The notes beneath the pieces are model-generated. The model made no database searches. It was not told the origin of the DNA and worked only from the letters and a program-made list of their open reading frames with translations. Shown piece by piece: positions 6,956 to 26,099 of a DNA stretch of 34,820 nt (positions are counted from its first letter, which is position 1; each line of letters opens with the position of its first letter). Origin of the DNA: a virus (taxonomy: Duplodnaviria; Heunggongvirae; Uroviricota; Caudoviricetes); IMG/VR virus record IMGVR_UViG_3300037751_000382, positions 66,619 to 101,438 of that record. One strand, 5' to 3'. The position numbers and the translations under genes are program-made.

Positions 6956-7026
6956 TGGCAGGGGTGGGAATCGAACCCACGTACCTGGCGTATGAGACCA
7001 GTGAGAAACCTCTTCTCTACCCTGCT
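6956..7026 (-). tRNA. tRNA-Met(CAU), initiator-like
   Basis: CTGGT-CTCATAC-GCCAG; unpaired 1:72; GGTTCGATTCC. Confidence 0.8.
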
Positions 7027-7161
7027 ATAAAGGTACTTTTTTAACGTGATGACCTTAACCACGGGCAGCCATTAAATTTTCCATCTGCTGGACCACCTAC
7101 AAATAAAAATTTACCTGGAAATAGTTTGTCAGTCATTAAAGTACCTTTCATTCTTATTTCA

Positions 7162-7190
7162 ATAATACTTTATATTTATAGCTTTGTCAA
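7162..7190 (-). promoter_or_regulatory. sigma70-like promoter upstream of the tRNA pair
   Basis: TTGACA-17-TATTAT. Confidence 0.6.
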
Positions 7191-7789: not shown

Positions 7790-7814
7790 TTTAAACTCCT
7801 AAATGAAGCTTCGG

Positions 7815-8812: not shown

Positions 8813-8819
8813 TTAATCA

Positions 8820-9050
8820 CTAAACTTCCCACCAAGTCAATTCGCCACCTAACTTTATAACACGTACGACAGCGCCAACTGAAATTGCTCCTTCACGGGG
8901 CTCATCACCAATACTAATGTATCGATGGTTATCAATTTTTAAACAAACATCCCTTATACAACCAGGAAATCTAAACAACCCCCATACAGGAATATCCTCA
9001 AAACTTAGGCGGGTGTTCGATTTTTTAATTTCTTTAGTTTTCATTTTCAT
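8820..9050 (-). CDS. small beta-rich phage protein (family with 4873 and 9770)
   Basis: FEDIPVWGLF...LKID. Confidence 0.6.
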   Translation of the reverse strand: MKMKTKEIKKSNTRLSFEDIPVWGLFRFPGCIRDVCLKIDNHRYISIGDEPREGAISVGAVVRVIKLGGELTWWEV

Positions 9051-9225
9051 CTTTCACATGAATATACTTTGCAACACTCAATACTTCTATTCTCTTTTGC
9101 TTAAGCCAATTAACATATACATCTGCCGATTCTTTAGATGAAAACCAACTGGTATGATGTAGCTGCTGGCCCATCCATGATCGAATCGATCTTACTCTCC
9201 ACAGCTCTTTAAGCGTATCATTCAT
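9034..9225 (-). CDS. hypothetical protein
   Basis: ORF tightly packed in a - strand run. Confidence 0.55.
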   Translation of the reverse strand: MNDTLKELWRVRSIRSWMGQQLHHTSWFSSKESADVYVNWLKQKRIEVLSVAKYIHVKDENEN

Positions 9226-9227
9226 AA

Positions 9228-9563
9228 TTATTCGCTGGATATATTTTTTAATTTCTGCAAAATTGATTTCCGGCCCGAGTCCCATCCAGCTTTTGCACCG
9301 TCACGAAAGGCCGCATACGTATTTGAACCAATCCAACGACAATCATGTTCATATAACCACTCGGCAAATTCACTTGGGTCTTCTTCAATATTACAAAGCT
9401 GTTCAATCTTTGCCTCATATTGCTGGCATCTTCGGACTAAAGGATTGACAAGTGACCCATCTCCATCTGGAAATAGCTCAAGGATTTTATCATAGTCCCA
9501 TTCTTCGGTCACTTCTTCGTATTGAATAGCTTCACGATTAATAATAATTATAGGTTTACTCAT
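9228..9563 (-). CDS. hypothetical protein
   Basis: ORF tightly packed in a - strand run. Confidence 0.6.
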   Translation of the reverse strand: MSKPIIIINREAIQYEEVTEEWDYDKILELFPDGDGSLVNPLVRRCQQYEAKIEQLCNIEEDPSEFAEWLYEHDCRWIGSNTYAAFRDGAKAGWDSGRKSILQKLKNISSE

Positions 9564-9777
9564 TGTTCCATCCCACACGCCAAAGAATGTCAAGTAAATC
9601 ACCGGTCGCTTTCAGATTTCCAACCGTCAAATTTCCAGCTGCTTCAGCTAACAAGATGAATGTATCAGTGGAATCTTGCTCAGCGATATACTTTAATCGA
9701 CTATACCTTTCAGACACCTCAGTGAGAATTTCGCTATGCTTGCGAATTGCGTCCAGTCTACGTTCACGTTCACTCAT
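9556..9777 (-). CDS. hypothetical protein
   Basis: AAGGA RBS; overlaps neighbours. Confidence 0.6.
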   Translation of the reverse strand: MSERERRLDAIRKHSEILTEVSERYSRLKYIAEQDSTDTFILLAEAAGNLTVGNLKATGDLLDILWRVGWNNE

Positions 9778-10012
9778 TATTATCCTTTCCTAAGTAAATT
9801 GGACGGCGAACTATTAACTCCAAGTCAACTCGATATAATTGACAATTAAATATGTTCGATTTACAGTAAACACTAGAATCTGTAAAACTAAAATATTGAT
9901 CCTTACTGGTTTTAATTTGTGGTTCACGTCCATAATCAACAACGAAACCTTCACCAGGGGAAAGTTCATCCCATGCAACAATTGGACCACTGATAATATT
10001 TGTAATCTTCAT
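9770..10012 (-). CDS. small beta-rich phage protein (family with 4873 and 8820)
   Basis: WDELSPGEGF...IKT...RVDLEL. Confidence 0.65.
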   Translation of the reverse strand: MKITNIISGPIVAWDELSPGEGFVVDYGREPQIKTSKDQYFSFTDSSVYCKSNIFNCQLYRVDLELIVRRPIYLGKDNNE

Positions 10013-10507
10013 ATAATTTCCTCTACAGGTTTAATGGTAAATAAATCAAAACATCCAACTACTTCGGAATGCGAGCCATTAACAATGACGGTCATTAGTT
10101 TGATAATCTTTGATGCTCATTTCGGCTTTCTTTCAAAAGGAACCAAAGTTCTAACTGTTACAGCATTTTTAAGAAGTCCTGTTTCGTGTCGTATAAATTC
10201 AGCATGATTTTCTGCATCCTCAGCCGATTGAAAATACACATGTTCCGGTAATCCTTCACAATAATCAATTTCAATTATATAGAGTTCATTCATTACTAAT
10301 TCCTCATTTATTTAAGTGATGTAGTTTTCAATAGTTTCTTTAGAATATTTTTTTCATATAACAAGTATACCATTCCTTTCTAACAAGTCAAATATAAATT
10401 TGTAACATTCACCTATGTCCTCATTTGGGTGAATTCTTATGTTTATGCTAATTTTTCCATCTTGATCTGGTTGTTGTAATGTGATTACCTCTATTTTAGC
10501 GAGCATA

Positions 10508-10870
10508 TCATTCTCCTAGAAATTTGTTTAAAAATTCATTGGCCTTTGATACTTGCTGCCTTATAGCACTTATTAGTTGCCAGTATTTTGTATAATCAAA
10601 ATATGACCAACGAAATAAACATAATCCTTTTTCAGTTACAAACTCTATGACCATTTGCTTATTTTCAGAATAGTTTTCAACATCTTCATATTCTCTATAA
10701 AGATACTCATACACTGCTATCAAGTGACCGCACACATTGGCCCAATAAACTGGTGGTATAACTTGATTAGGTCTATCAAATGGTATACTAGTTCCCCAGA
10801 CAATTGAACCGTTTACGGTTTCCCTAGTAAGTTTATCTATAGCTTTTTCCCAATCAGTACTAAGTTTCAT
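10508..10870 (-). CDS. hypothetical protein
   Basis: 120-aa ORF with GGAG RBS. Confidence 0.7.
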   Translation of the reverse strand: MKLSTDWEKAIDKLTRETVNGSIVWGTSIPFDRPNQVIPPVYWANVCGHLIAVYEYLYREYEDVENYSENKQMVIEFVTEKGLCLFRWSYFDYTKYWQLISAIRQQVSKANEFLNKFLGE

Positions 10871-11036
10871 TATCTTTCTCCATTAGTTTCTTTAAAAAGG
10901 TTCTGCGTTTCTTATTGACTTGTCTTCGTAATTTAGCAGTGACTAGAGAAGCTTTTCTATTGTTACCTAATCCAATACATTTTGTACTGTGATAGGAGTC
11001 AATAAACTGTGTGGTATGTTGTGTTCTTGGGATCAT
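10860..11036 (-). CDS. small basic hypothetical protein
   Basis: GGAAGG RBS; Lys/Arg-rich C-terminus. Confidence 0.5.
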   Translation of the reverse strand: MIPRTQHTTQFIDSYHSTKCIGLGNNRKASLVTAKLRRQVNKKRRTFLKKLMEKDNET

Positions 11037-11062
11037 ATTTCCTTCCATAACAGATGATATAT

Positions 11063-11434
11063 TTAAGTTGTACATAGATCAGTCTCTGTATCAAAAAGAG
11101 TCAATTTGCCTAGAATAAATTTCTTTCCAATATATTTATAGATTTCACTTTCAATGATAAATGATTCCTTAAGAATTATATATTTTATATCACCACGCTC
11201 ACGATAAATTTCAATGTTTTCTGGAAATTGTTCCGTTATTAATTTAATACATTCTTCATCACTAAGAAGCATAAAGTTATCTGATTTCTCTGTTACATAT
11301 TCATCAATTATGAGTGTTGCGATTCGCGCCGAAAAATTAAATTTTGGGTTCCATTTCATAAGTGTTGAACCAATTTCGTCCCCACTTAAAATGAAATAAA
11401 TACCGTTTTCATCAAATTCTGTCATAATAAACAT
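11063..11434 (-). CDS. hypothetical protein
   Basis: GAGG RBS; TTGACA-16-TAAAAT promoter just upstream (~11456-11483). Confidence 0.65.
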   Translation of the reverse strand: MFIMTEFDENGIYFILSGDEIGSTLMKWNPKFNFSARIATLIIDEYVTEKSDNFMLLSDEECIKLITEQFPENIEIYRERGDIKYIILKESFIIESEIYKYIGKKFILGKLTLFDTETDLCTT

Positions 11435-11519
11435 ATACCTCAGTGTTATATTAATATTTTAGCGTATGTTTGGGATTTGTCAAGTATTATTTATCACTCT
11501 TGACAAGTAACAATACATG

Positions 11520-11714
11520 TTAACATAAATACTTTCTATTAAAGGAAATGGTTTCAATTGTTTCTTTACTAGGTGATCTTGACAAACGATAAGAACTACA
11601 TAGATTATCTAGGGCTAAAGCTAATTCATATAGACCTTTTAAAGATATAGCTGTTTCAAGGTCACCTTTGGCTATTAACTCACTTACCATTATAATTGGA
11701 TGTTTTGGTTTCAT
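11520..11714 (-). CDS. hypothetical protein
   Basis: ORF with GGAG upstream. Confidence 0.5.
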   Translation of the reverse strand: MKPKHPIIMVSELIAKGDLETAISLKGLYELALALDNLCSSYRLSRSPSKETIETISFNRKYLC

Positions 11715-11869
11715 ATTTCTAATATCTCTCCATCTTTAATATTATTTAAAAGATTCAACAGTATTTTTGTAGCTCTGTCAAAATTATGTTGGGGCCATCC
11801 ACCTTGGATAGTTAATTTCTTTAATTGCTTCACAATGTGTTCTAGATCATTTAGTGAATAATGATTCAT

Positions 11870-12139
11870 TTATTTCCCTTTCATAATGTTAACTAAATAA
11901 TAAGTCCATTTTGCACCATAATCGGTATGTCCTAACGCTAAATTTTCACCTTTAACAACATCTTCCATAGTGGGAACTTTTAATCCGTATTTTTGAGCAC
12001 AATCAACAACAGCTTTGTAAACGGCTCGCCTTTCATTTTTAATCCAATCAGAACAAGTATCCCTATGTTGTGCTTCCTTTTGAAAAGCATCATAAATACT
12101 TCTAGCTGGTTCATTTTTCGGTCTAAATATATCTCTCAT
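11870..12139 (-). CDS. hypothetical protein
   Basis: AAGGA RBS; ALGHTDYGAKW motif. Confidence 0.7.
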   Translation of the reverse strand: MRDIFRPKNEPARSIYDAFQKEAQHRDTCSDWIKNERRAVYKAVVDCAQKYGLKVPTMEDVVKGENLALGHTDYGAKWTYYLVNIMKGK

Positions 12140-12164
12140 CTAATTTTCCTTTCTGAGTTCAGAG

Positions 12165-12239
12165 CTGCGGCGGCAGGAATCGAACCTGCGTCAGGGCGGT
12201 TAACAGCCGCTTGCCCGTACCAGCACGGACTCCACCGCA
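12165..12239 (-). tRNA. tRNA-Asn(GUU)
   Basis: TGCGGTG/CGCCGCA acceptor; GCGG-CTGTTAA-CCGC; GCAGG-TTCGATT-CCTGC. Confidence 0.85.
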
Positions 12240-12245
12240 ATTGGA

Positions 12246-12473
12246 TTAGAGTGGCTCTGTATGATAAACCCAAGAGATAGCATAATTCCCGACCTTGCAA
12301 ATGGAAAATGAATCCTTAACACGAGCATTAGGCATAATTACTCCGACATCTCCATTAAATGTCGCGTTCCAATTTTCTCGGCAAATTTCTTTAGCCATTT
12401 CCTCATCATAAGCCAATACTGAAACCATCTTATTTCCATCAATTCTGATCATGTATACACGTGGATAATCCAT
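12246..12473 (-). CDS. hypothetical protein
   Basis: ORF with RBS. Confidence 0.55.
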   Translation of the reverse strand: MDYPRVYMIRIDGNKMVSVLAYDEEMAKEICRENWNATFNGDVGVIMPNARVKDSFSICKVGNYAISWVYHTEPL

Positions 12474-12633
12474 GGTATTCCCTTCTTAAGTAATCAGTGT
12501 TAGCTATAATACATGCCTCGCAACCACATTCACCTTTACATGGGTATGAACACTTTTCTGAACATGTACATACCCAACCTGCATATAATCCATTTTTATA
12601 TATTAGTTTACCAAATTTTGTAGGTTCCTTCAT
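12439..12633 (-). CDS. Cys-rich mini-protein
   Basis: CTC...C...CKGECGCEAC. Confidence 0.55.
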   Translation of the reverse strand: MKEPTKFGKLIYKNGLYAGWVCTCSEKCSYPCKGECGCEACIIANTDYLRREYHGLSTCIHDQN

Positions 12634-12768
12634 TCTTTCTCCAAATAAGTTCACCGTAGTTTCTAGTTTCAAATGCTACTTTTGGACATAGGAACAGTTG
12701 ACTAATTTTATAGTCAAAGGCTCGTTCCCAGCACCAGTAATAGTAGCCATCCTCATTTCTAAAATATA

Positions 12769-12987
12769 TTAGGTGCAATCTAAAGCCTGAAAAAGCCAAG
12801 TCTTGAAGGAGGATTCCATACGCACAATTTCAAATGCTCCATGTTTATCTTCATGTGAAATTGCTAAATTATGTTTTTCACATACAGTCCAAATCTCTTC
12901 AAGGAAAGCATCTATAGTTTTGTTTTCTATTGGCTCAGTTAAATAGTAGTGAAGATCAGTTTTAGGGTAAATTTTATAACGTTTCAT
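12769..12987 (-). CDS. hypothetical phage protein
   Basis: VCEKHNLAISHEDKHGAFEI motif. Confidence 0.65.
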   Translation of the reverse strand: MKRYKIYPKTDLHYYLTEPIENKTIDAFLEEIWTVCEKHNLAISHEDKHGAFEIVRMESSFKTWLFQALDCT

Positions 12988-13346
12988 TGTAGTTCCTTTC
13001 TTAGTGCAAGTAAGGATTTAACAACAACATAGAACAAATGATCCTCATCTCTATGTGACTTTGGAAGTTGGTTATAGGGAACTAGAGTTGGATGTTGTTT
13101 ACGTTCCAAATTTTCTTTGTTTCCCCATGTCCACCCCGCCTTAAACATACGTCCACAATATTCCTCATGGGCTTCTCTTAAAGTTTTGGTAGGATTATCT
13201 TCTAAATATTTAATTGCATTTAGTATGGCATCTTTAGTGAATTGTGGGGCATTTTCCCAATGAGATGGCGAATAATCACTCCTACACTCATAACAAGCTT
13301 CATTAATATTATAGGTTACTTTTGCTATTTGCTCATTCGTAATCAT
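12984..13346 (-). CDS. RyR-domain-containing phage protein
   Basis: HEEY...GWTWG......KQHPTLVPYNQLP...D signature. Confidence 0.8.
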   Translation of the reverse strand: MITNEQIAKVTYNINEACYECRSDYSPSHWENAPQFTKDAILNAIKYLEDNPTKTLREAHEEYCGRMFKAGWTWGNKENLERKQHPTLVPYNQLPKSHRDEDHLFYVVVKSLLALRKELQ

Positions 13347-13518
13347 AATGAATCTTTCTATCAGATTCTGCTCTTAGTAAAATATATAAAAGATTATTGG
13401 TTTCTTTAACGTTCAAAGGTTCCTTGTATTCTGTTACTTCAAACCACTGTAGCCAACAATCAATACAATTTGCTTTTGGTTTACGTTTTGCCTTATACTG
13501 TGGATGTATACAACACAT
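13333..13518 (-). CDS. hypothetical protein (CxxHPxY...CxxCW)
   Basis: ORF tightly packed in a - strand run. Confidence 0.55.
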   Translation of the reverse strand: MCCIHPQYKAKRKPKANCIDCWLQWFEVTEYKEPLNVKETNNLLYILLRAESDRKIHYDYE

Positions 13519-13521
13519 AAA

Positions 13522-13707
13522 CTATACCTTTCCATGATCATACTCGTCAATTGTAATTAATACTCCATTCCTAATACATATAATTCTTCCGTGATCATGT
13601 TCACTAAAATCACGTAAAGCTGATAAGAATCCTTTGCAGTATTCATAATCTTCGTTCATTCTATACGTATGCCATCTATCTTTAATAAAAACCTGAACAA
13701 TATACAT
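13522..13707 (-). CDS. hypothetical protein
   Basis: ORF directly after tRNA-Leu. Confidence 0.55.
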   Translation of the reverse strand: MYIVQVFIKDRWHTYRMNEDYEYCKGFLSALRDFSEHDHGRIICIRNGVLITIDEYDHGKV

Positions 13708-13722
13708 AAATTACCCTTTCAG

Positions 13723-13807
13723 TGGCCAAGGTGAGACTCGAACTCACACGGGAGTAACCTCCCATCGGTTCTTAAGACCGATGCGTCTGCCATTCCGCCA
13801 CATGGCC
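13723..13807 (-). tRNA. tRNA-Leu(UAA)
   Basis: GGCGGAATGGCAGACGC D-arm, TCGGT-CTTAAGA-ACCGA, long variable arm. Confidence 0.92.
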
Positions 13808-13906
13808 ATTTAAATTTTAAATTTTGTCGGCCGGATTTTTCGCTGGCAAATAGTAATAAGTTAATCAGACTATTTCCACCATTTACTTAGCTGTATGCCT
13901 TGTAGG

Positions 13907-14308
13907 CTAATCCAATAACACCAGCTCGTCCGGGTTCCGCAGCACACTGTAATCAAACTCACGCAGCACCCCTTGCCCGATCAAGATGTCACTGTTATCT
14001 GGCACAACGCAAATCGCGACGTTTCGCAGGACGCGATTGCCGACCTCGACAGTTTGTGCATGGCACAGCGTGGCTTCAGAAGTCGAGCCGTCAGCCAGCT
14101 TGAGTTTTATGCTTTTGCCACAATGTAGCCCGAGCCTATTCGCCACAGACCATGGCATATAGATGGTGTTGCAGCCAGAATCTAGGATGCCACGCACATC
14201 TTGGCCGTTAATACGCACGACAATGTGCAACAACCCGAGGTCATCCCACTCCAACGGCACCCGGCAGTTGCTGGTAGGTGTATTAAATACTTCGGCTATT
14301 GTGTACAT
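13907..14308 (-). CDS. retropepsin-like aspartyl protease
   Basis: ILDSGC catalytic motif, LADG flap, ILIG; TTGACA-16-TATAAT promoter upstream. Confidence 0.85.
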   Translation of the reverse strand: MYTIAEVFNTPTSNCRVPLEWDDLGLLHIVVRINGQDVRGILDSGCNTIYMPWSVANRLGLHCGKSIKLKLADGSTSEATLCHAQTVEVGNRVLRNVAICVVPDNSDILIGQGVLREFDYSVLRNPDELVLLD

Positions 14309-14372
14309 TGTTTAATTATACCTTAGATTAGATAATTGTCAACTATTTGACATTTTATTTGTCTGTTTACAA

Positions 14373-14445
14373 TAAGGCCGTCGAGACTTGAACTCGAAAC
14401 CTCTAGATTAAAAGTCTAGCTCTCTACCAATTGAGATACGACCTC
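14373..14445 (-). tRNA. tRNA-Lys(UUU)
   Basis: CTAGA-CTTTTAA-TCTAG; complete cloverleaf. Confidence 0.88.
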
Positions 14446-14515
14446 ATTATACACTTAATTTCAAGGTCATTTTATTTCCACTATTTAATTATATATTGAA
14501 ATTAATAATTGTCAA

Positions 14516-15010
14516 CTATTTTGTAATTTTATTTAAAGTGGCGAATTTACCAAAATATTTAATTGCTGCTTTGTTGTACGCTTTAGCTGCCTCTATTTTA
14601 TCTGTAAAAAGTCCTAAATGTATAGTTTTATTATCAACTGTTATATTAGCTAACCATTTTCCAGTTTTCTTATACCAAGCAACTCCTTTATAGCCTGAAG
14701 TATTATGTTTCGGGATACCGATGTTTCTAGAGTTTCCATTTCTATTTGCCGATCTTAAGTTTCCCCTTAAATTATTTAAAGAATTTCTATCTTTATGATC
14801 AATATCACAGCTTAAATCTAAATCCATTCTTTCAGCTATTACTCTATGCATGTAAATTGTTTTATGTTTACCTGTTGAATAATCACTTCTAATCGCGTAA
14901 AACTTTCCGTTCTTTCCTTTCCGAGCATACCATTTCCATTGTAACAAGTACCTATAATCAATATAATCAACAATTGTAAATTGATTTTGTGTTAATTTAA
15001 TCTTATTCAT
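14516..15010 (-). CDS. HNH endonuclease with AP2 domain
   Basis: YMHRVI...DIDHKDRNSLNN...NTSGYKGV...HLGLF..AAKAYN. Confidence 0.9.
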   Translation of the reverse strand: MNKIKLTQNQFTIVDYIDYRYLLQWKWYARKGKNGKFYAIRSDYSTGKHKTIYMHRVIAERMDLDLSCDIDHKDRNSLNNLRGNLRSANRNGNSRNIGIPKHNTSGYKGVAWYKKTGKWLANITVDNKTIHLGLFTDKIEAAKAYNKAAIKYFGKFATLNKITK

Positions 15011-16061
15011 TATCCGTTCCATTTCGTCGATTGTGGTAGTCTACTGAAACAGACTTTAGAATTACCCTATTCCCACAACTGTCAAGTTGTTCTTTTAAAG
15101 GTGTAATTACTATCCCTTCCCTCCCCTTAAAACCAGTTGTTACGTTAAAAGTTGTCGGTCCGTCAGTATATTCGTCCACTACATCCTGGTTAAACGGGCC
15201 AATGTAAAGAATCGGGACAGTGGGAATATTGTACTGGTTTAGAAGAACATTTACAGATTGATAGTCAAGATACCTACTATTTACACTGATATCATACACC
15301 CTAAATTCCTTCTTATTTAATCCATAATGCATATCTTGAACCTTCGGGCCAAAAATCTCTCCGAAGATGATAACGTCAGCATTATCATTTTGTTCCGAGA
15401 TACTCTTTAGCACTTCTTGAATGTCAGTAGTCATGGGTTCCCAGTACATACTTGGAACACCACTTTCATATTCACTCTTAAGCCTTCTCTTGTGACTTCC
15501 TGCTACAAACATCATGTGACCGTTCTCATCCTTGACATAACCAAGCCTATTGTTTGTGCCATGAATTTTCTCGGTAATACGTACCAGTGTGCCCTCTGGA
15601 ATAAGATTAGGATACCGCTGAATGTTCTCAATATCTGTGTAAATATGGAAATTAGGTAAGGCTCTAGCTGCATCCCCATGATTAGTTACTGGAGGAATGT
15701 ACTTATGTCCCTCATACATACTAGTAACATCTTCACCTATTTCCCAATCATTAGACACTGGTATAACAAAACCGTAACTAGCTACACCTCTAATCCTGCA
15801 CGCGCTAACTCTACACTTAGTTTTTTCAATGTCACCTGGATAAATAGATTCCTTAAGATACTTTTGTACACCAAGATTCAATGAAATGTGCTCAGGGATA
15901 AGGATATCAGGTGGAAAAAAGAAAACTTTATCACCTTCCTTAAAATCATTTCGACCGGTAACAACATGGTAACCTAGAACCTTGATAATATCCAAACGAT
16001 CAGCATTTGGATGGTTCCTAACAAATTCAATCTTTTCACAAGTAATTGCTGTAGTGCTCAT
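15003..16061 (-). CDS. RNA ligase, DRB0094-like (N-terminal OB domain + nucleotidyltransferase)
   Basis: HPNADRL N-terminus; TEKIHGTN motif I; FGEIFG; REGIVI; LKSVS. Confidence 0.88.
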   Translation of the reverse strand: MSTTAITCEKIEFVRNHPNADRLDIIKVLGYHVVTGRNDFKEGDKVFFFPPDILIPEHISLNLGVQKYLKESIYPGDIEKTKCRVSACRIRGVASYGFVIPVSNDWEIGEDVTSMYEGHKYIPPVTNHGDAARALPNFHIYTDIENIQRYPNLIPEGTLVRITEKIHGTNNRLGYVKDENGHMMFVAGSHKRRLKSEYESGVPSMYWEPMTTDIQEVLKSISEQNDNADVIIFGEIFGPKVQDMHYGLNKKEFRVYDISVNSRYLDYQSVNVLLNQYNIPTVPILYIGPFNQDVVDEYTDGPTTFNVTTGFKGREGIVITPLKEQLDSCGNRVILKSVSVDYHNRRNGTDNE

Positions 16062-16263
16062 TATTTATATCTCCGGCTCAATGCGTTTATTGCTATACTT
16101 TCAATGGAATTTAGTGTGTCGCTTTGGTTCTCCTTTACACATAATTTTTTTATTTTTTTCAATGACTCTCTTAAATAATTAAGTTCGTCTAATATACTAA
16201 GAACAGTTTCATGACTAAACATTTTATCCTCTCTATAGCGCTTGTTAAAGTGTTCATGGTAAA

Positions 16264-16350
16264 TGGGTAGGGAAGGAGTTGAACCTCTCGTCGGCCGCCT
16301 TAATTATTTAATGACGACAGATTTACAGTCTGTCATAAGGAACCCCACCC
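16264..16350 (-). tRNA. atypical tRNA-Tyr(GUA) lacking a D-arm, with enlarged variable region
   Basis: GGGTGGG/CCTACCC acceptor, ACAGA-CTGTAAA-TCTGT, GAGG-TTCAACT-CCTT; only 10 nt between acceptor and anticodon stems. Confidence 0.65.
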
Positions 16351-16487
16351 TAATTTAAGGATCATAAATTCTACGACGCTTGTACTCATCCGCTAGGTCC
16401 TTAAGCTTAACGTTGTAATTCTTAAGCACATACTTTTCAGCTTCATAGTATGTCCATTCGTTATCAAGTACAAGGTGCTCAAGGCTG

Positions 16488-16709
16488 TCAACGGCATCCA
16501 TTAATGTGTTCATTTTTAATCCTCTCAGGGATAAGGTTAAACTGATCTTCGGTCAAAGGTACTACTTTTATGGTGCCCATTCCTACATGCTTGTATGAAC
16601 GGAACCCTAGCTTAGGTTCCACTTGGTAGCAATGCGTCCAAGTTTCGTGGTCACTTAGTATCATGGCTGTTCGTTCTTGTTCCCCGTAAGTAAGTTGTAT
16701 TGTGTTCAT
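16488..16709 (-). CDS. hypothetical protein (possibly WYL/SH3-like)
   Basis: LTY...R...GFRSYK pattern; promoter upstream. Confidence 0.5.
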   Translation of the reverse strand: MNTIQLTYGEQERTAMILSDHETWTHCYQVEPKLGFRSYKHVGMGTIKVVPLTEDQFNLIPERIKNEHINGCR

Positions 16710-16732
16710 ATTTATATACTACCTTATTCTTT

Positions 16733-16990
16733 TTAATTGTCAAGTGATCGTTGAATAAAACTTTCTGCGTAACTCAGTGCCCCTAACTTTACACACAAGT
16801 GCGTTAGATCAATGTCACTAAGTTCACCATCTTTTTCCATTATATCACAAACCCTAATAGTAGCTATAAAAGCTAAAGTAGTTAACCTAGACATTATGTC
16901 AGGGTCCTTCATCTTAGTAAAAAGATACTCTGTAAGTTCGGTCTTTTGTTCATCATACTGTCTAATAGTATTGATAAATTCTTTATTCAT
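16733..16990 (-). CDS. hypothetical protein
   Basis: GGAG RBS; helical ORF. Confidence 0.55.
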   Translation of the reverse strand: MNKEFINTIRQYDEQKTELTEYLFTKMKDPDIMSRLTTLAFIATIRVCDIMEKDGELSDIDLTHLCVKLGALSYAESFIQRSLDN

Positions 16991-17139
16991 TTTCTTTCTC
17001 CGGGCCACGGGGCCTCATTGGAATTGAATAAGCCAGTGCGCTACGGACACATTTCTCGCGCCGCTTGGACATTGGATGTGATGTTAGCTCCAACCATCGC
17101 CTTGTCACACATTCTGTCAATTGATCCAAAATCTTTTCT

Positions 17140-17343
17140 CTACGATTCATTTTCTTCTCCTGGGATAATGTTTAGTACTGCGAAATTTTTGTAATGTATT
17201 TTAGCTGCTTCATTGTAGGCTTTCGCTGCTTCAATCTCGGTTTCAAAGTAACCAAGGAATTTTGGTTCACCATTAACATAGATATTAGCTTCCCACTTAT
17301 CGTTAAAATGGTTACGATGTACTCCTATATAAAATTTATACAT
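17140..17343 (-). CDS. stand-alone AP2-domain protein
   Basis: YIGV...KWEANI...FLGYF..EIEAAKAYN. Confidence 0.8.
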   Translation of the reverse strand: MYKFYIGVHRNHFNDKWEANIYVNGEPKFLGYFETEIEAAKAYNEAAKIHYKNFAVLNIIPGEENES

Positions 17344-17562
17344 TTAATCCTCATATTTTTGTAAGAAAATGCCCCAAGCAATAGCTACCCACATGTTACG
17401 ATCTTCATTACACATATCACATGCTTCAATGTCCTCAGCATCTGTTGTTACTCGTATAATATCTATCTCTAGTGCCCGTGGAATATTATACTTATCTCTG
17501 CCCCAAGTAATGTAAACCTCAATATAGGCGTCATTAGTTTCAAATACCATATTACTATTCAT
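17344..17562 (-). CDS. hypothetical protein
   Basis: ORF tightly packed in a - strand run. Confidence 0.55.
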   Translation of the reverse strand: MNSNMVFETNDAYIEVYITWGRDKYNIPRALEIDIIRVTTDAEDIEACDMCNEDRNMWVAIAWGIFLQKYED

Positions 17563-17758
17563 TGTTTTCCCTTTCCATACAATCTCTCCAACCTATAATA
17601 TATGCTAAAATTTGTTTACCATTTTCACTAGGACCTTCATAGTGAAACTCTTTACCGTCAAAATAAAAATAATCATTAATACCTTCCGGGATAATTTTAT
17701 ACTGTTGCAAGGACTCCATGATCCTTTCACCTAGATGGTTTTTCATATTGATGTTCAT
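17555..17758 (-). CDS. hypothetical protein immediately downstream of the CRISPR array
   Basis: ORF begins 5 nt after the terminal repeat. Confidence 0.55.
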   Translation of the reverse strand: MNINMKNHLGERIMESLQQYKIIPEGINDYFYFDGKEFHYEGPSENGKQILAYIIGWRDCMERENNE

Positions 17759-17762
17759 TATA

Positions 17763-18235
17763 CTCTCAGTGGTTATATGATTCGTTCTCCACTCCTGGGA
17801 TATCCCAAGCGGTTTAACAGCATCTTGCGAGCACCACCCTCAGTGGTTATACGATTCGTTCTCCACTCCTGGGATTTTACTGTGCAATCGAATTCATTTA
17901 GGCGCGGCCCCTCAGTGGTTATACGATTCGTTCTCCACTCCTGGTTCCACCATAGGTCCCACAATTGTTTCTAGTTCCTCACCCTCAGTGGTTATACGAT
18001 TCGTTCTCCACTCCTGGGAACTAGTCCTACAAACTTTCCCTGAAATCTCTAATCCCTCAGTGGTTATACGATTCGTTCTCCACTCCTGGGCACCTATACA
18101 AGGTAGAGAGGTAACAATGATTGATTCCCTCAGTGGTTATACGATTCGTTCTCCACTCCTGGAAGATGGCAATCGATCACTACCGCGTGAAAGAACGACC
18201 CCTCAGTGGTTATACGATTCGTTCTCCACTCCTGG
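17763..18235 (-). CRISPR. CRISPR array: 7 x 36-nt repeats, 6 spacers of 36-38 nt
   Basis: Repeat (- strand) CCAGGAGTGGAGAACGAATCGTATAACCACTGAGGG at 17763 (2 mismatches, terminal), 17837, 17909, 17982, 18054, 18127 and 18200; AGTGG/CCACT stem; orientation inferred from the degenerate end and the adjacent gene. Confidence 0.97.
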
Positions 18236-18357
18236 GGCTGCTACGTAAGTGTAGATATCCCAAGCGGTTTAACAGCATCTTGCGAGCACCCCCATAGCCT
18301 ATAGCATATCGGCGCTCACACTCGCCACGGAGGGTGGCGTCATCGATTCGTAACATC
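18236..18357 (-). promoter_or_regulatory. CRISPR leader / candidate tracr- or scout-RNA region
   Basis: 122-nt gap between effector stop and first repeat; CGCCAC/GTGGCG hairpin; 9/10 anti-repeat at 18325-18334. Confidence 0.65.
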
Positions 18358-19731
18358 TTACGTCTCCATGTATTGTAGAATTTGCGAGAGGTTCCCAGCA
18401 TTTCCAAGACACCTAACCTCTCGAAGCCAGTCAACAATTGATTCTAGTTTAAACCATTCACCCATTACACGGCAATGAGCAAATTGTGCGTGGTATTGTT
18501 TCTCAATTTTTCTTAAATTACTTTTTGCAGTTTTATGGGTCGCCAAGACAATGAGTTCTTGACCACCTGCATTTTCAAGTGTTTTTTTCCTCGTGCCTTT
18601 TTTATCCCCTGTCATCCCAATTTTAACTTTCCCGTCAAATTTACCGTTGTTTACCGAAGCTAGAAAATAAACATGGGGTTCATCTAACTCTGCGGGGTGT
18701 ATGTCGTTTGTGATTTCACAGAACGAAAGTCCAACATTCTCACACTTATTTTTTAAAGTTTCACAGAATTTATAATACGGAAACTGTGTCCCAAAATAAC
18801 TCTTAATTGTTCCATCATATTCTAGTGAAGCTACTTTTCGTCGCCTTGCATAGTCTACAATGTGTGCAACTGTTTCTTGAATGAACGAGTTTACCCGGTC
18901 ACAGTATTTCTTTGATACTTTGTTTTGAATTTTAATCAACTGTTGCCGAGTGTGGCCACTTTTACGATCCTGTCGTAATCGTTGTTGCTTACGGTTCCGC
19001 TCATTTTGCCAACTTCGTACGTGGTCAGCGTTCACAGTGAATGGGGTATCAGCATCTGTTTTCATTGCAACTATAAACGATTCTCTGGCTATTCTGACTG
19101 TAAGACAACCGTCCTTAATACAATTATCTTCAGACGGTTCCAATTTACAAGCTAACCCTAACATAGGTATTTCTTTACCCCCTACCTTTTGTAACCAAAT
19201 CTTAGAGTCTCCTACACTGACCGCCTTCTTAATGGTGTTTAGTGGTAGTCGATAATTACTTCCACCTCTCAACTGTACCTTATATTTTTTGCCTGTCAAC
19301 AAAGAAAAATTAGCAATTAAATTACCATCATCGTCCGTTTCAATATTAAGATTGCGTGTAGACTTATTACTAAGCAACGGAACCGAGCAATTTCGCTGAG
19401 TAGGTAGCGAACATCTTCCATTTAATATGTCCCATCTCTTTGAGACATAGACTTTCCAAGCGTTACGCGCTAATGCTGCCTGAACACTCGCACACCCTTT
19501 AAATTGACCAGCTAATACTGGATAGGGGTATATTTTCCCTTGTTTTGGTATAGGTTCACCGCGTGAAACTTTTTCATAAGCATCCTTATCTTGTGATAAA
19601 CACTCCGCTAAACATCGATTTGTAGCAGCTACACATTTTTTAATATCTTGTCGCAGGTCAACATAGAATTCCTTGGGTGTTCCACCCTCAAGTATTTTTG
19701 CGACGGGAATTTTAATGGTTCGTGTAAACAT
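18358..19731 (-). CDS. Cas12f/TnpB-like RNA-guided protein with degenerate RuvC fused to a C-terminal T5orf172/GIY-YIG nuclease domain
   Basis: N-terminal TRTIKI, SLPT, helix RVNSFIQETVAHIVDYARRRKVASLEYD, FPYYKFCETLKNKCENVG; C-terminal VYFL..KVKIGMT..R..IEKQYH..GEWF; adjacent array; ATG 19731 has a GAGGA RBS (track start GTG 19737). Confidence 0.8.
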   Translation of the reverse strand: MFTRTIKIPVAKILEGGTPKEFYVDLRQDIKKCVAATNRCLAECLSQDKDAYEKVSRGEPIPKQGKIYPYPVLAGQFKGCASVQAALARNAWKVYVSKRWDILNGRCSLPTQRNCSVPLLSNKSTRNLNIETDDDGNLIANFSLLTGKKYKVQLRGGSNYRLPLNTIKKAVSVGDSKIWLQKVGGKEIPMLGLACKLEPSEDNCIKDGCLTVRIARESFIVAMKTDADTPFTVNADHVRSWQNERNRKQQRLRQDRKSGHTRQQLIKIQNKVSKKYCDRVNSFIQETVAHIVDYARRRKVASLEYDGTIKSYFGTQFPYYKFCETLKNKCENVGLSFCEITNDIHPAELDEPHVYFLASVNNGKFDGKVKIGMTGDKKGTRKKTLENAGGQELIVLATHKTAKSNLRKIEKQYHAQFAHCRVMGEWFKLESIVDWLREVRCLGNAGNLSQILQYMET

Positions 19732-20060
19732 AATCACATTTCCTCACTGTAAAATCTTTCTAGTCCTTCACGTGCTTCACAAGCACTATGTTTATTAGGA
19801 TAGGGACCGCAGGGATCGTCTTCATCGGGCAGCTCAATCCAGTACTCCCTATCTATCTTTACAATTTTAAGTTTCATTTCTTTTCCTTCTTAAGGGGTAT
19901 TTTAATAGGCAACAAATCACCTAAGGCTTCACGTATCTTAGCAAATGTTTTCAAAGCTAACGAGTGACCAGTGACTTCCTGCCAAGTTCTTTCGATTTCA
20001 CAGGTACAGAAATCCACAAAATCATCTCTATCATGTTTACTCATTTTCATTTCCTTTCAG

Positions 20061-20135
20061 TTGGAAGGGTGGGATTTGAACCCACGACCATCGCCTTATA
20101 AGAGCGCGGCACCCACCAAGCTGTGCTACCTTCCA
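20061..20135 (-). tRNA. tRNA-Ile(UAU)
   Basis: TGGAAGG/CCTTCCA acceptor; CGCT-CTTATAA-GGCG; GTGGG-TTCAAAT-CCCAC. Confidence 0.8.
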
Positions 20136-20547: not shown

Positions 20548-20802
20548 TTAGTTATCCTTTCTAAGTAAATTGTAACATGGATTTGGTTACTGTCAAATTA
20601 AAATTTTATATAGAAAGTTTTATCTGAAAATCTCACTTTAAAATTTTTACGAGAAAATTTTTAAGTTCCACGCTCAGCTCGGCCACTATTAATATTAGCG
20701 CTAATATTAGCGCTAATATAAGCGCTAATAGCGCTAATATATACACATTAATTAATGACCAAAACCGCACTAACGAGGAGGTCACCGGACTATCGGACCC
20801 TA

Positions 20803-21020
20803 ATATCTCTATATCTCTATATCTCTATATCCCTATATCTCTGTATCTCTATATCTCTATATCTCTATATCCCTATATCTCTATATCTCTATATCTCTAT
20901 ATCTCTATATCTCTATATCTCTATATCTCTATATCTCTATATCTCTATATCTCTATGTATCTTTATCTATGTGTATCTTTATCTATGTGTATCTTTATCT
21001 ATATGTCTCTGTATCTATAT
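20803..21020. repeat. (ATCTCT)n microsatellite, degenerating rightwards
   Basis: Direct reading. Confidence 0.95.
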
Positions 21021-21035
21021 GTGTCACCTTACCAC

Positions 21036-21341
21036 TTGGCCACCTGACCACCCTGGACAGCTACCAGTCACCTGGCCGATGTCCTAACCACCCTGGACAG
21101 CTACCAGTCACCTGGCCGATGTCCTGGTCACCTGGCCGATGTCCTGGCCACCCTGGACAGCTACAGTCACCTGGCCACCCTGGACAGCTACCAGTCACCT
21201 GGCCACCCTGGACAGCTACCAGTCACCTGGCCGATGTCCTGGCCATCTGGCCGATGTCCTGGCCACCCTGGACAGCTACCAGTCACCTGGACACCCTGGA
21301 CAGCTACCAGTCACCTGGCCGATGTCCTGGCCACCCTGGAC
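21036..21341. repeat. complex tandem repeat of CCACCCTGGACAGCTACCAGTCACCTGG and CCGATGTCCTGG modules
   Basis: Direct reading. Confidence 0.92.
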
Positions 21342-21997: not shown

Positions 21998-22011
21998 TTA
22001 ATAGGTAGCCG

Positions 22012-22370
22012 GGTCTTGGGTGACCTGTCTTGGGTGACCTGTCTTGGGTGACCTGTCTTGGGTGACCTGTCTTGGGCACGCGGGCCACCAGCCGGGTGAC
22101 CTGTCTTGGGTGACCTGTCTTGGGTGACCTGTCTTGGGTGACCAGCTATGCGACTTATAAAGATAAATTGATAAAAATATCCAATTTTATCAAGTGATGG
22201 ATAAAGATAAATTGATAAAAATATCCGATTTTGTTAATTGGGCCACCAGCCAGGTGACCTGTCTTGGGTGACCTGTCTTGGGTACGCGGGCCACCAGCCG
22301 GGTGACCTGTCTTGGGTGACCAGCTACGCGACTTATAAAGATAAATTGATAAAAATATCCAATTTTAATC
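22012..22370. repeat. 14-bp tandem repeats (GGGTGACCTGTCTT) interleaved with AT-rich AAAGATAAATTGATAAAAATATCC units; block duplicated
   Basis: Direct reading. Confidence 0.9.
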
Positions 22371-22717: not shown

Positions 22718-23926
22718 ATGCCTATTCATTGTGTACACTGTTGCGACGACTTGCCAAGCACCCATGATCAAATTGTTGACGGGGCTTATGTTTGCGATAC
22801 TTGTTATAATGAGTGTTTTGAATGCGCTAATTGTGGTGCACTATTACACACAAGTGACATGGTTTGCAATGATGAAAATAATTTGTATTGTCCAGACTGT
22901 TATGATGAACGATTCACTAGGTGTGAAGAATGCAATTGTGAAATATCTAGTGATGAGGTATATACGTACAATGATAATCAGTATTGTGCGTCATGTTATA
23001 ATGACAATTATTGTCAGTGTGAAGGGTGCAGCGTAGTTTACCCCCTGGAAACAATGGTTCATAATCCTAACAATTGCAGCCAATGGTATTGTCCAGACTG
23101 CCACGAAAGTGATTGCTGGGACAGTGGCGATGACGTAATAGGCCACACTTTCACTGAATTAAGGTCAACCAGAAGATATGGAATTGAGTTAGAGTTTTCC
23201 CGATGCAATGATTACATGGAATTGCAAGAAAAAACATGTTATGGGGCAAAGAATGATGGCACAAGTGGTGTTGAAAAGGAGTTTGTTAGCCCAATTCTCC
23301 AGGGGGATGAAGGATTAAACATAACAAGGAAATTTTTGCATTATGCCGATGATAATGATTTTGAGGTCGACAAAACTTGTGGCTACCATTTACATATTGA
23401 TTGTACTAATCTAACGATACCACAGTTGCGTGCAATTGCAATGGCATACCAGTATACCTATAAGATATGGAAGTACTTTGTTCCTGAATCACGTAGGTGT
23501 AATTATTATTGTAGGGAATATACCTATAAGTCTAACGATATCCTTTCTATGGATTTTGACGATCTGATAGACCTACCAGAATCTAGGTACATTTGGGCTA
23601 ACTGGGAAGCTTATAAACGGCATCATACTTTGGAGATACGGCTGCACACCGGTAGCACAGATGAAACAAAAATAATCAATTGGGTAAAAGCGCACCTACG
23701 CTTTGTGGATTATGTTCTAGGTTACACTGCGCTGGAGTTACATAACTTGCTCCAAGATGCTGATAAAGACGAATTGTTTAAATTTATGGCTGATACTTGG
23801 AATGATGATGTATTGACTTCATTCTATTTCAAGCGTGCTAACAAATTTGGGGGAAGATTACATTATGAAAATATTAGTGATTCAGACGATTGTAGCGACA
23901 TTTTATGTTCATCACCTATCAACTAA
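22718..23926 (+). CDS. putative amidoligase (COOH-NH2 ligase) with N-terminal multi-CxxC zinc-ribbon repeats
   Basis: YGIELEF, EFVSPIL, TCGYHLHID, RY...N, TLEIRLH motifs. Confidence 0.88.
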   Translation: MPIHCVHCCDDLPSTHDQIVDGAYVCDTCYNECFECANCGALLHTSDMVCNDENNLYCPDCYDERFTRCEECNCEISSDEVYTYNDNQYCASCYNDNYCQCEGCSVVYPLETMVHNPNNCSQWYCPDCHESDCWDSGDDVIGHTFTELRSTRRYGIELEFSRCNDYMELQEKTCYGAKNDGTSGVEKEFVSPILQGDEGLNITRKFLHYADDNDFEVDKTCGYHLHIDCTNLTIPQLRAIAMAYQYTYKIWKYFVPESRRCNYYCREYTYKSNDILSMDFDDLIDLPESRYIWANWEAYKRHHTLEIRLHTGSTDETKIINWVKAHLRFVDYVLGYTALELHNLLQDADKDELFKFMADTWNDDVLTSFYFKRANKFGGRLHYENISDSDDCSDILCSSPIN

Positions 23927-24013
23927 TGAGCTAGTTGACTTGCAACTGGCTCTAAGTATGCTAGGCTTTTGTTACGGGTTTCCTATCCTTCACACTTATA
24001 TAAAGGGTTAACT

Positions 24014-24826
24014 ATGTGCGGCATATTCGGGGCAATCGGTAAAGGATGGAATAAGTCAATCGTCCGTGGACTAGCAATTGCCAATAGGGATAGGGGTACT
24101 GATTCCCTTGGGTTCGTTATTAGTGATTATAGGATGTGGAAGGAAGCCAATGATCCATTGAACTGTATGACTTATGACTCTTTTAATGATTACACCAAAC
24201 TGTGGGATAGCTCTTGGTTTGTGATTGGTCACACTAGAGCCGCAACTAGGGGAAATGTCACGAGAAAGAATGCACACCCCTTTCGACGTGGTAAGTGGGT
24301 AGGTGTCCACAACGGAATTATTTCAGCCCCCACTACATGCGAAGTAGACAGTATGCATCTATGGGAACAATTGAAACGATACAAAGGGGACTACCAAAAG
24401 GCCTGGGAAAACATTTGGGGCAATTGGGGGTTGGCATGGTATGATGGCAACCACGTTTATCTGCAAGCGCACGATCAATCCCTTGCCAGTGTAACTATTA
24501 GCGGGGTGACATACTTTAGCAGCGATCATCGGCACCTTAGTGCGGTCACTGGTGTAAACGAATGCTGGGATTATATTGAGGGGGAAACATGGAAGTATCT
24601 CAAAAACGGATCATGTGTGGAATGTCCCATTTTTGAGGAAAACTTGGAGGTATGCTGGGTTAACCGTAAAAATGATAATGTTAAATTTATCAATTCTCCT
24701 GATCACTTCAAACATGTTGAGAAAATGGATAATGAAAGAGCGTGGGATCATGAAGCTTGGGATGAATATGTAAGGGATTATGACAATAAGGAAAATCACA
24801 CTTATTACAGCGGTAGCGCTGATTAG
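24014..24826 (+). CDS. class II (Ntn) glutamine amidotransferase
   Basis: MCGIFG N-terminal nucleophile, RG.DS.G, GHTRAAT.G, NAHPF, HNG, VDS. Confidence 0.92.
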   Translation: MCGIFGAIGKGWNKSIVRGLAIANRDRGTDSLGFVISDYRMWKEANDPLNCMTYDSFNDYTKLWDSSWFVIGHTRAATRGNVTRKNAHPFRRGKWVGVHNGIISAPTTCEVDSMHLWEQLKRYKGDYQKAWENIWGNWGLAWYDGNHVYLQAHDQSLASVTISGVTYFSSDHRHLSAVTGVNECWDYIEGETWKYLKNGSCVECPIFEENLEVCWVNRKNDNVKFINSPDHFKHVEKMDNERAWDHEAWDEYVRDYDNKENHTYYSGSAD

Positions 24827-24835
24827 GAAATCACT

Positions 24836-25063
24836 ATGTCACCCAGCGGAATTAGGGACCACAGTACAGACTACTGGCAGATATATGGGATTCGTGCGCG
24901 GTTGACTGTGAATTGTCTACACAGTGCGATTGAGCACATAAGAGCATTAGCAGGTACAATGCAAGTCAATCATAAAATTACTATTGTGTCACCAAAAGGG
25001 AATGTGTGGATTATTCCAGCGAATATGGATATAGAGCGCAAAAATGCCAAAAAGGTTTCTTGA
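24836..25063 (+). CDS. hypothetical protein
   Basis: ORF with AGGA RBS. Confidence 0.5.
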   Translation: MSPSGIRDHSTDYWQIYGIRARLTVNCLHSAIEHIRALAGTMQVNHKITIVSPKGNVWIIPANMDIERKNAKKVS

Positions 25064-25121
25064 CAGTAGCTCTTTTACATAGTAGCATTGTAAAAACATC
25101 ACTTGTAAATGGGAATCTAAA

Positions 25122-26099
25122 ATGATCTGTCATTGTTGCTGCGAACAACTTGCTCCTGAAAATGAGCCAATCCTTTACGAGGGGAATTATTTATGCCACC
25201 ACTGCTGGGTTGCAATTACGGGTGTAACGTGTCGTGATTGTCAATGTGTAAGACGTGTTAATCAAATGGTCTATTTTAACGGTTTTCCCTATTGTATCAG
25301 GTGTGCTAAAAAACCCAACTGGAAAATGGGGAAAGACGTTATAGGCCACACTTTCAATGAAATAAGGTCAAAGCGTAGGTATGGTGTGGAATTGGAGGTG
25401 CATCAATGCACACAGCACTACCAATTGAAGGGGAAAACTTGCTTTGGTGCCAAGGATGATGGCACTAGGGGTGTTGCTAAAGAATTCGTTAGTCCTATTT
25501 TACAGGGGGATGAGGGATTAAGGGCCATTAGGGACCTATGCAATAATTCCAAAGGGTTCACAGTTAACCATACTTGCGGATATCACTTGCATATTGATTG
25601 CACCGATCTTACGGAAGATCAGTGTAAGTCGGTGGCCCTAGCCTATAATATGACATATGACGTTTGGGCTAGTTTTGTGAATCAAAAGCGTAGAGACAAT
25701 CGATACTGTAAAATGCATGAGTGGAGTTATTATGATATTCTCAATTATTCATGGAATAATTTACTTAACAATATTTACACTAGATACACTTGGGCGAATT
25801 GGGACGCCTATAAACTCCACCATACGCTTGAAATACGATTGCACCCCGGAACGCTGGATCAAGGTAAAATAATTAATTGGGTCAAAGCGCACTTGCGGTT
25901 TGTGGACTATTTTCTCAAGTTTACTCCACAACACACCTATGATATGCTTAATGACCTAAACAACGATCAATTGTTTGAGTTTATGTGTGACATTTGGAAC
26001 GATTCTAAGTTGAGTAAGTATTACAAGCGTAGGTCTAAGCATTATGGATTAGCCCAAAAGCCAGTGGCCCAAGAGTCATGGGTGAGTGGTGAGTGGTGA
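25122..26099 (+). CDS. second putative amidoligase with fewer zinc-ribbon repeats
   Basis: YGVELEV, EFVSPILQGDEGL, TCGYHLHID, TLEIRLH; close paralog of 22718. Confidence 0.88.
   Translation: MICHCCCEQLAPENEPILYEGNYLCHHCWVAITGVTCRDCQCVRRVNQMVYFNGFPYCIRCAKKPNWKMGKDVIGHTFNEIRSKRRYGVELEVHQCTQHYQLKGKTCFGAKDDGTRGVAKEFVSPILQGDEGLRAIRDLCNNSKGFTVNHTCGYHLHIDCTDLTEDQCKSVALAYNMTYDVWASFVNQKRRDNRYCKMHEWSYYDILNYSWNNLLNNIYTRYTWANWDAYKLHHTLEIRLHPGTLDQGKIINWVKAHLRFVDYFLKFTPQHTYDMLNDLNNDQLFEFMCDIWNDSKLSKYYKRRSKHYGLAQKPVAQESWVSGEW

Follow-up and report, generated by a model that had tools for sequence, protein, structure and literature searches.

A phage-borne Cas12f-like protein with a degenerate RuvC site, a fused GIY-YIG domain and a predicted guide-RNA scaffold beside its CRISPR array

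The DNA analyzed here, 34,820 nucleotides (nt) referred to as the window, comprises positions 66,619 to 101,438 of IMG/VR virus record IMGVR_UViG_3300037751_000382 (Caudoviricetes) and forms the final third of that 101,438-nt phage record, which is estimated to be 96% complete. The system in question is a single gene for a compact effector, in which a Cas12f-like scaffold is joined to a GIY-YIG domain, together with the array of clustered regularly interspaced short palindromic repeats (CRISPR) that follows it. The initial annotation, made from the letters of the window alone, had described one gene of about 457 amino acids (aa) with 122 nt between its stop codon and a seven-repeat array on the same strand. 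These coordinates were confirmed, and all motifs quoted for the protein were present in the 457-aa open reading frame (ORF). An alternative in-frame GTG start at 19737 would give 459 aa. The locus contains the following features.

18358..19731, minus strand: effector gene, ATG start, 457 aa; Cas12f-like scaffold with a GIY-YIG domain joined to it
18706..19731, minus strand: Cas12f-like WED/REC/RuvC-fold part, aa 1-342; Arg213 at the RuvC-I Asp position, Asp306 at that of RuvC-II; zinc finger and RuvC-III motif absent
18418..18678, minus strand: T5orf172/MUG113 (GIY-YIG) domain, aa 352-438, with Tyr355, Lys370, Gly372, Arg381, Glu410 and Glu425
18385..18423, minus strand: candidate hairpin of 9 base pairs (bp) in the window, within the ORF at its 3' end; codons of Arg437, Leu448 and Ser449 frozen among homologs
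18236..18362, minus strand: conserved structured RNA scaffold, hairpins P1-P5, between gene and array
18323..18339, minus strand: hairpin P2, with a predicted pseudoknot beside the guide between its loop (18330-18333) and the complementary repeat 3' end (18201-18204)
18259..18264, minus strand: 6-nt anti-repeat; its complement, 18231-18236, is the repeat 5' end with the base before it
17763..18235, minus strand: CRISPR array, seven repeats of 36 nt (the last with two changes) and six spacers of 36-38 nt
17799..17836, minus strand: spacer 6, the gene-distal one, which over its positions 2-38 matches the scaffold DNA at 18254-18290 exactly

The fusion was found in 54 full-length sequences. One homolog search returned 37 homologs, 32 of which align over 98% or more of the query with 34-55% identity, and a profile search added further homologs with a clear score gap to proteins matched only to about position 340. 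Divergence within the fused set is about 30-55% identity. Single contigs of two sequencing runs from different studies, one of which may be the source sample, covered positions 18261-19900 and 18254-19900 of the window with no differences. The possibility of an assembly chimera, raised as a check in the initial annotation, was rejected on the basis of the fused homologs and these gene-spanning contigs. The search for homologs with the same fusion beside arrays, also proposed there, was equally positive: two or more repeats follow the scaffold at 18 of 22 loci, which represent about 14 distinct systems and were drawn from viral and metagenome contigs (L004, L018, L019 and L021 end at a contig edge). 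No fused homolog was detected in GTDB genomes, where 20 DNA-pattern matches did not encode the protein, and no homolog was detected in GenBank phages. A search for longer fusions, a weak test, found none. P0088 resembles an internally deleted copy; at L022:1-891 a 3' gene fragment has one array upstream and another behind it; and at L012:1613-1850 extra sequence separates the gene end from the scaffold.

Over aa 1-342 the protein has the organization of Cas12f. The single 457-aa sequence matched guided_TnpB weakly (E 1.4e-6, under the cut-off). A family profile built from 33 members matched AsCas12f1 (7WJU) with E 1.5e-14 over profile positions 62-340, followed by other Cas12f proteins and the nuclease-dead Cas12f (dCas12f) 9N9C. 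An AlphaFold2 model of the full protein was obtained with a predicted local distance difference test score (pLDDT) of 87.8 and a predicted template modelling score (pTM) of 0.50. Its best Foldseek matches were OsCas12f and AsCas12f (E about 1e-16), and comparison with 8J12_B in VIA gave Z 19.6 and a root mean square deviation (rmsd) of 9.5 over 322 aligned residues. In both profile and alignment the Cas12f homology stops at about aa 342. Profile, Foldseek and VIA agree on the Cas12f/TnpB layout that had been assigned to the N-terminal part, which also models as a Cas12/TnpB fold as anticipated. By fold and array linkage, the protein is a member of type V (Cas12/TnpB superfamily).

The RuvC site of this scaffold is degenerate. 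The RuvC-I Asp of AsCas12f1 aligns onto Arg213, and this column holds Ser, Ala, Arg, Lys, Thr or Val in 46 of the 54 full-length sequences. These assignments rest on profile and family alignments, the joint alignment with outgroups having put the RuvC-I column on a gap. A GxDxG-type RuvC-I pattern and a RuvC-III pattern were both absent from all 54 sequences, and two CxxC motifs, as in a C4 zinc finger, occurred in only one; the GIY-YIG domain sits at that place. The family thus departs from Cas12f1 in the RuvC D-E-D triad and in the C4 zinc finger. Asp306 at the RuvC-II position is kept in 52/54 sequences, and its alignment is ambiguous: HMMER places it on the Asp of EDL and MAFFT on the catalytic Glu. 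The earlier description of the protein as RuvC-dead is correct for the RuvC-I Asp, the zinc finger and RuvC-III, which are gone, but the RuvC-II position is not simply empty. The terminal GNxGN helix was considered as a relic of RuvC-III. This was unsupported, since the alignment ends at aa 342 and the conservation is at least partly at the nucleotide level.

The GIY-YIG domain follows on a short linker (aa 342-352) at the former zinc-finger site. With aa 346-455, Pfam returned MUG113 at E 4.9e-10 and T5orf172 at E 6.5e-9 (40.3 and 36.7 bits, against curated cut-offs of 22.3 and 20), and among 16 homologous domains 15 matched MUG113 and 13 matched T5orf172 at E up to 1. Tyr355, Lys370, Gly372, Glu410 and Glu425 are present in 54/54 full-length sequences and Arg381 in 50/54, so that the T5orf172/MUG113 signature with retained Arg and Glu, as first recognized, stands. 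Codons of the invariant residues are synonymously mixed across 14 loci, which indicates that selection acts on the protein. The domain profile matched all 54 fused proteins and none of 111 unfused relatives. Modelled alone, the domain reached pLDDT 83. Its best VIA match among 48,161 chains was HIGLE (Z 5.2, rmsd 4.1, 91 aligned), followed by two Slx1 matches (Z 4.6 and 4.3) and then by the plant Grx N-domain, I-TevI, PD-T4-3, UvrC and EF2693 (Z 4.0-4.1). All eight best matches include or are GIY-YIG proteins, some by title and several presumably. In an Atlas comparison, template modelling (TM) scores of 0.62-0.72 to T5orf172 domains were obtained; among PDB sequences, the C-terminal profile matched no GIY-YIG protein. 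Glu410 aligns weakly with E180 of Odn (ICP1 Gp88), which PMC8263062 describes as a T5orf172 nuclease that cuts double-stranded DNA and loses cleavage in the E180A variant.

A swap of the nuclease, as the initial annotation had further supposed, is not supported by the 111 closest unfused proteins (about 400 aa): they too are RuvC-degenerate and truncated, with Arg or Lys at position 213 in 70/111. Where an FP[WY] motif was found, they end 25-52 residues past it in 75 of 82 cases (141 in P0001). An N-terminal Cys motif occurs in 81/111 unfused proteins and in 0/54 fused ones. In a FastTree tree of the shared region, fused and unfused proteins formed sister clades with support of 92 and 97, and 95 for both together. 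The tree sampled roughly one sequence in two, 30 fused and 56 unfused, with two long-branch outgroups; its root is weak, and the unfused set was chosen by similarity to the fused family. Since degenerate RuvC sites and truncated C-termini are found in the nearest unfused relatives as well, RuvC loss is likely to be earlier than the fusion. Loss of RuvC followed by gain of GIY-YIG is the simplest reading, with the order unproven, and the GIY-YIG domain likely re-armed an already dead binder rather than replaced an active RuvC. Two unfused genes in one Planctomycetota genome, out of 401 searched, adjoin CRISPR arrays of other repeat types. The unfused sister clade comprises P0068-P0180, with the array-linked members L044:1471-3115 and L045:700-2616; no curated family scored over its cut-off in 13 proteins tested, and the clade is possibly undescribed itself.

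The 122-nt gap between gene and array belongs to a conserved stretch that the initial annotation had overlooked. Conservation starts at the GNxGN codons and runs for about 170 nt up to the first repeat, with a mean column identity of 67% (14 sequences), and compensatory changes were seen in 25 of 40 predicted scaffold pairs. Pairing of the anti-repeat with the repeat 5' end was Watson-Crick at 79/84 positions and complete (84/84) when G-U was included, in 11 distinct sequence combinations among the 14 sequences. In the shuffle control a mean of 57.3 pairs was reached, and 0 of 50,000 shuffles were as good. For the pseudoknot between the P2 loop and the repeat 3' end, 55/56 pairs were found in three covarying forms, and 4 of 50,000 shuffles were as good. 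From these patterns, the gap is predicted to be a guide-RNA scaffold joined to the repeat by a 6-bp anti-repeat and a 4-bp pseudoknot; within the aligned scaffold, pairing with the repeat was limited to these 6 and 4 bp. A BLAST search of the phage's own genome with the repeat returned the array only, and no wider search for a distant trans-activating RNA was made. Rfam gave no credible family on the scaffold, and a promoter scan remained at chance level. A scaffold profile made from the window and 13 loci found the scaffold at 22/22 loci, which had been located partly through the GNxGN motif at the scaffold edge and without use of the arrays. The order gene, scaffold, array is fixed.

The nucleotide constraint reaches into the gene, where Arg437 is encoded by CGA and Ser449 by TCG in 14/14 sequences. 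These frozen codons can form a hairpin, in which no compensatory changes were seen. In many homologs, among them L002, L005, L006, L009, L015 and L019, the reading frame continues for 45-67 codons beyond GNxGN, across the scaffold and into repeat 1, and the C-terminal tail is translated RNA element. Away from the gene, orphan cassettes of scaffold, repeat and their own guide were found in related phages, four in G004 and two in G003; these copies are 91-98% identical. Two of them end in hairpin-plus-T-run terminators. As the orphans begin at hairpin P1 or P2, the hairpin inside the ORF is dispensable for them. The existence of orphan copies with their own guides apart from the gene was considered decisive for the view that the scaffold RNA acts as a unit. 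The cassettes, some with mini-arrays, lie between genes on both strands (G004:C1, with L060, L061 and L003:4715-4934; G003:C1, with L062 and L002:4050-4223).

The arrays contain up to 14 different spacers of regular length. In the repeats (18200-18235 in the window; L002-L021) the centre is, by eye, almost always a short DNA palindrome with a gap of 0-2 nt and a sequence that differs by locus; it may act as a signal for integration or as a site where RNAs pair. At L001:2011-3057 two repeat variants, 8-10 changes apart, occur in one array, with six gene-proximal and nine distal copies. Near-identical spacer pairs (about 89-97%) within the arrays at L003:6726-6905, L001:2706-2950 and L022:1055-1164 suggest either repeated targeting of variants of one site or duplication with drift. 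Spacer 6 of the window is a 37-nt exact copy of part of its own scaffold, which had been missed at first. Its interpretation as a degenerate-repeat artefact was unsupported: the spacer is of normal length, and in run X1 the depth of the 37-nt piece was about double that of the gene (70.7 versus 37.5), although the contigs over the spacer 6 junctions were one base short of the 31-base bridging rule. The 5' flank of the match in the scaffold ends in GGG, like the repeat. A motif rule sparing the array would therefore probably spare the scaffold site too.

From the domain composition and the covariation, we consider it probable, though well short of certain, that the protein is an RNA-guided DNA nickase or nuclease acting through its GIY-YIG domain. 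In the proposed mechanism, scaffold, repeat 1 and spacer 1 would form a natural, omega-RNA-like single guide, and later repeats, as CRISPR RNAs, would pair with the scaffold in trans through the anti-repeat and the pseudoknot. By homology to Cas12f, the body of the protein, possibly as a dimer, would read a 5' motif and form an R-loop. The tethered GIY-YIG domain would then cleave at the R-loop or close to it, each active site acting on one strand. Since GIY-YIG domains have a single active site, a nick would be the default, and breaking both strands would take a dimer or two nicks in succession. Its role may be attack on competing phages, satellites or host defence DNA. Spacers would be acquired in trans by the host Cas1-Cas2; no match to Cas1 was found in the 101,438-nt record or in four further virus records of the family (22-55% complete).

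Several observations weigh against this proposal. Spacer 6 matches the system's own scaffold DNA, which a lethal nuclease tolerates only if the target-adjacent motif (TAM) is absent there. No foreign protospacer was found in any search, all results being blank or at chance level. Window spacer 1 had 0 matches in IMG/VR (spacers 2-5 lay outside that scan), and the window array had 0 in GenBank phages and 0 in plasmids. Against the 401 Planctomycetota genomes, it gave one 26-nt match at chance level (E 6e-4), and the L001 array gave nine marginal matches (E 0.004-0.01). Single spacers of L003, L002 and L005 matched only their own arrays, and of 118 extracted spacer entries compared with the collected loci and the phage's own genome, a redundant set with four spurious entries from L007 and L034, only spacer 6 matched. 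On the protein side, conservation of the acidic residues 217, 236 and 306 leaves room for residual RuvC chemistry. The structural Z of the small domain is a modest 4-5, the Odn alignment is weak (E 0.03, probability 1.7%), the Arg381 loop is poorly modelled (pLDDT under 50 at 377-389), and the pTM of 0.50 leaves the placement of the GIY-YIG domain open. The shuffle controls take no account of relatedness among the loci.

Of the alternatives, an RNA-guided binder or repressor comparable to Cas12m, TldR and CRISPR-linked dCas12f is possible but clearly less probable; here the GIY-YIG domain would bind DNA, stabilize the fold or trim the guide, and the target would not be cut. Binding alone suffices in the lineage, as the sister clade without a nuclease domain still adjoins arrays, and the self-matching spacer 6 fits autoregulation. 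CRISPR-linked dCas12f with promoter-targeting guides is reported in the available part of PMC13472631. However, the invariance of the catalytic-type Tyr, Gly and Glu in 54 sequences of such divergence exceeds the usual need of a binding module, and the T5orf172 domain of Odn does cut double-stranded DNA (PMC8263062).

Improbable in our judgement is RNA-guided homing, in which a selfish cassette would cut cassette-free alleles of related phages and spread by repair, like TnpB or a homing endonuclease. It would agree with the differing neighbourhoods, as neighbouring genes vary from locus to locus and no common neighbour was seen among the genes, which were listed without annotation. It would also agree with the duplicated scaffold cassettes around G003 and G004 and with the T5orf172 domains of putative homing endonucleases (PMC8263062, available part). 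Arrays with as many as 14 different spacers of regular length are instead typical of immunity or competition, no spacer matched flanking DNA in the loci examined, and no transposase-sized conserved neighbour was seen in the gene listing, made with no family-library scan.

At least as doubtful is a rearranged RuvC site of Asp306, Asp/Glu217 and Asp236 that would cut one strand, with GIY-YIG cutting the other or idle. Asp306 is found in 52/54 fused and 85/111 unfused proteins, Asp236 in 102/111 unfused proteins and an acidic residue at 217 in 48/54 fused ones; rearranged, probably active RuvC sites exist in TnpB (PMC10691335, as far as available). The substituted RuvC-I column and the absence of both the GxDxG-type and the RuvC-III pattern argue against such a site. 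Very unlikely, finally, is non-specific GIY-YIG cutting triggered by target binding (collateral damage or dormancy, which could serve, for instance, to keep out a superinfecting phage), for which the nearest solved folds, HIGLE and Slx1, structure-specific nucleases without need of a fixed sequence, argue only indirectly, while the self-matching spacer and the phage location speak against a suicidal output and tethered GIY-YIG domains generally act in cis.

The system was compared with known ones. It resembles Cas12f1 (V-F; AsCas12f1 7WJU/8J12, OsCas12f 9NZQ) in size class and, over aa 1-342, in fold and in the order of domains; 36-nt repeats, the repeat-then-spacer polarity and a separate scaffold RNA that pairs with the repeat are also shared. 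It differs in carrying GIY-YIG in place of the missing zinc finger and RuvC-III, in lacking the RuvC-I Asp, in an identity of only about 15%, in the shortness of the anti-repeat and pseudoknot pairing, and in a scaffold contiguous with repeat 1. Like dCas12f-sigmaE and CRISPR-linked dCas12f (9N9C; PMC13472631 and PMC10691335, as far as available), the protein is C-terminally truncated before zinc finger and RuvC-III, and the model (aa 1-340) aligned with 9N9C (5-365) at VIA Z 17.1 and rmsd 15.6 over 313 residues. An omega-RNA-like scaffold with a 3' guide and several guide RNA copies per genome are further common traits. Unlike these proteins, the system is phage-borne and keeps full arrays, and the fused nuclease occupies the predicted sigmaE docking place. 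No rpoE or helix-turn-helix (HTH) partner was seen among the window neighbours in a Pfam scan; at the other loci neighbours were listed without a family scan. TnpB/omega-RNA and TranC intermediates have in common with it the scaffold directly at the gene 3' end, nucleotide constraint into the ORF and a 3' pseudoknot beside the guide. In contrast to them, it has multi-spacer arrays and a degenerate RuvC, and no transposase was found among the window neighbours of the effector gene.

Odn and other T5orf172 chimeric nucleases likewise join a phage T5orf172 domain to a borrowed targeting domain, with the catalytic Glu aligning weakly; specificity comes from a RepA-like protein domain in Odn, whereas here it would come from a guide RNA. 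HNH-Cas5/Cas8 fusions and engineered I-TevI-Cas fusions follow the same principle of arming an RNA-guided binder. The phage protein differs from HNH fusions to class 1 subunits and from the engineered fusions in being a natural single-protein class 2 effector with GIY-YIG, not HNH. Among the former, HNH-DinG (PMC11656645, as far as available) shows a homing-endonuclease-type domain in this function.

To our knowledge, the type V effectors described so far either rely on RuvC for cutting or do not cut at all. The literature searched, with subscription journals and patents outside its scope, yielded no type V effector that carries GIY-YIG, in line with the first assessment, to which none of this architecture was known. 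The text and one supplement of PMC10691335 contain no GIY, T5orf172 or MUG113; they cover RpoE-linked inactive proteins without zinc finger and RuvC-III and the altered-site groups V-U24/43/44, and the cluster datasets of that paper may bear on the question. The accessible part of PMC13472631 makes no mention of GIY; it deals with truncated dCas12f, guides resembling omega-RNA and a cluster linked to CRISPR. In those of PMC11656645 and PMC13565253, GIY-YIG appears only for Odn or homing endonucleases.

The fused family is real, conserved and apparently undescribed, and may merit its own type V subtype. With somewhat better than even confidence, we regard it as a new subtype with the first natural class 2 effector that cuts DNA by GIY-YIG, derived from a re-armed, dead and truncated Cas12f and served by a natural single-guide scaffold copied around phage genomes as stand-alone cassettes. 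A natural GIY-YIG-armed Cas12f would, if true, add a nuclease family to class 2 CRISPR, and Cas12 inactivation would be reversible through domain gain. A parallel is the gain of HNH by IscB/Cas9. Its size of 457 aa and the natural guide of roughly 200 nt make the protein a candidate nickase or nuclease of compact form, which probably lacks the collateral activity of RuvC. A single protein, a single RNA and a single point mutant would suffice to test the claim, and the unfused sister clade offers a built-in control.

The remainder of the window was also inspected. Eight tRNA genes lie at 5138-20135, of which tRNA-Ile(TAT) at 20060-20135 is about 330 nt upstream of the effector gene. Downstream of the array, at 13907-16061, are genes for a retroviral-type aspartyl protease, an HNH-AP2 nuclease and an RNA ligase. 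Long low-complexity tandem repeats with units of 7-20 nt occupy 20747-21333, 21999-22322, 32883-33846 and 34755-34820, in a divergent region and at the contig end. Dispersed repeats of 40-90 nt at 30633-33158, with promoter-like hexamers before short ORFs, are probably early promoters. At 22718-26099, a class II glutamine amidotransferase gene lies between two amidoligase-2 genes with Cys-rich N-termini.

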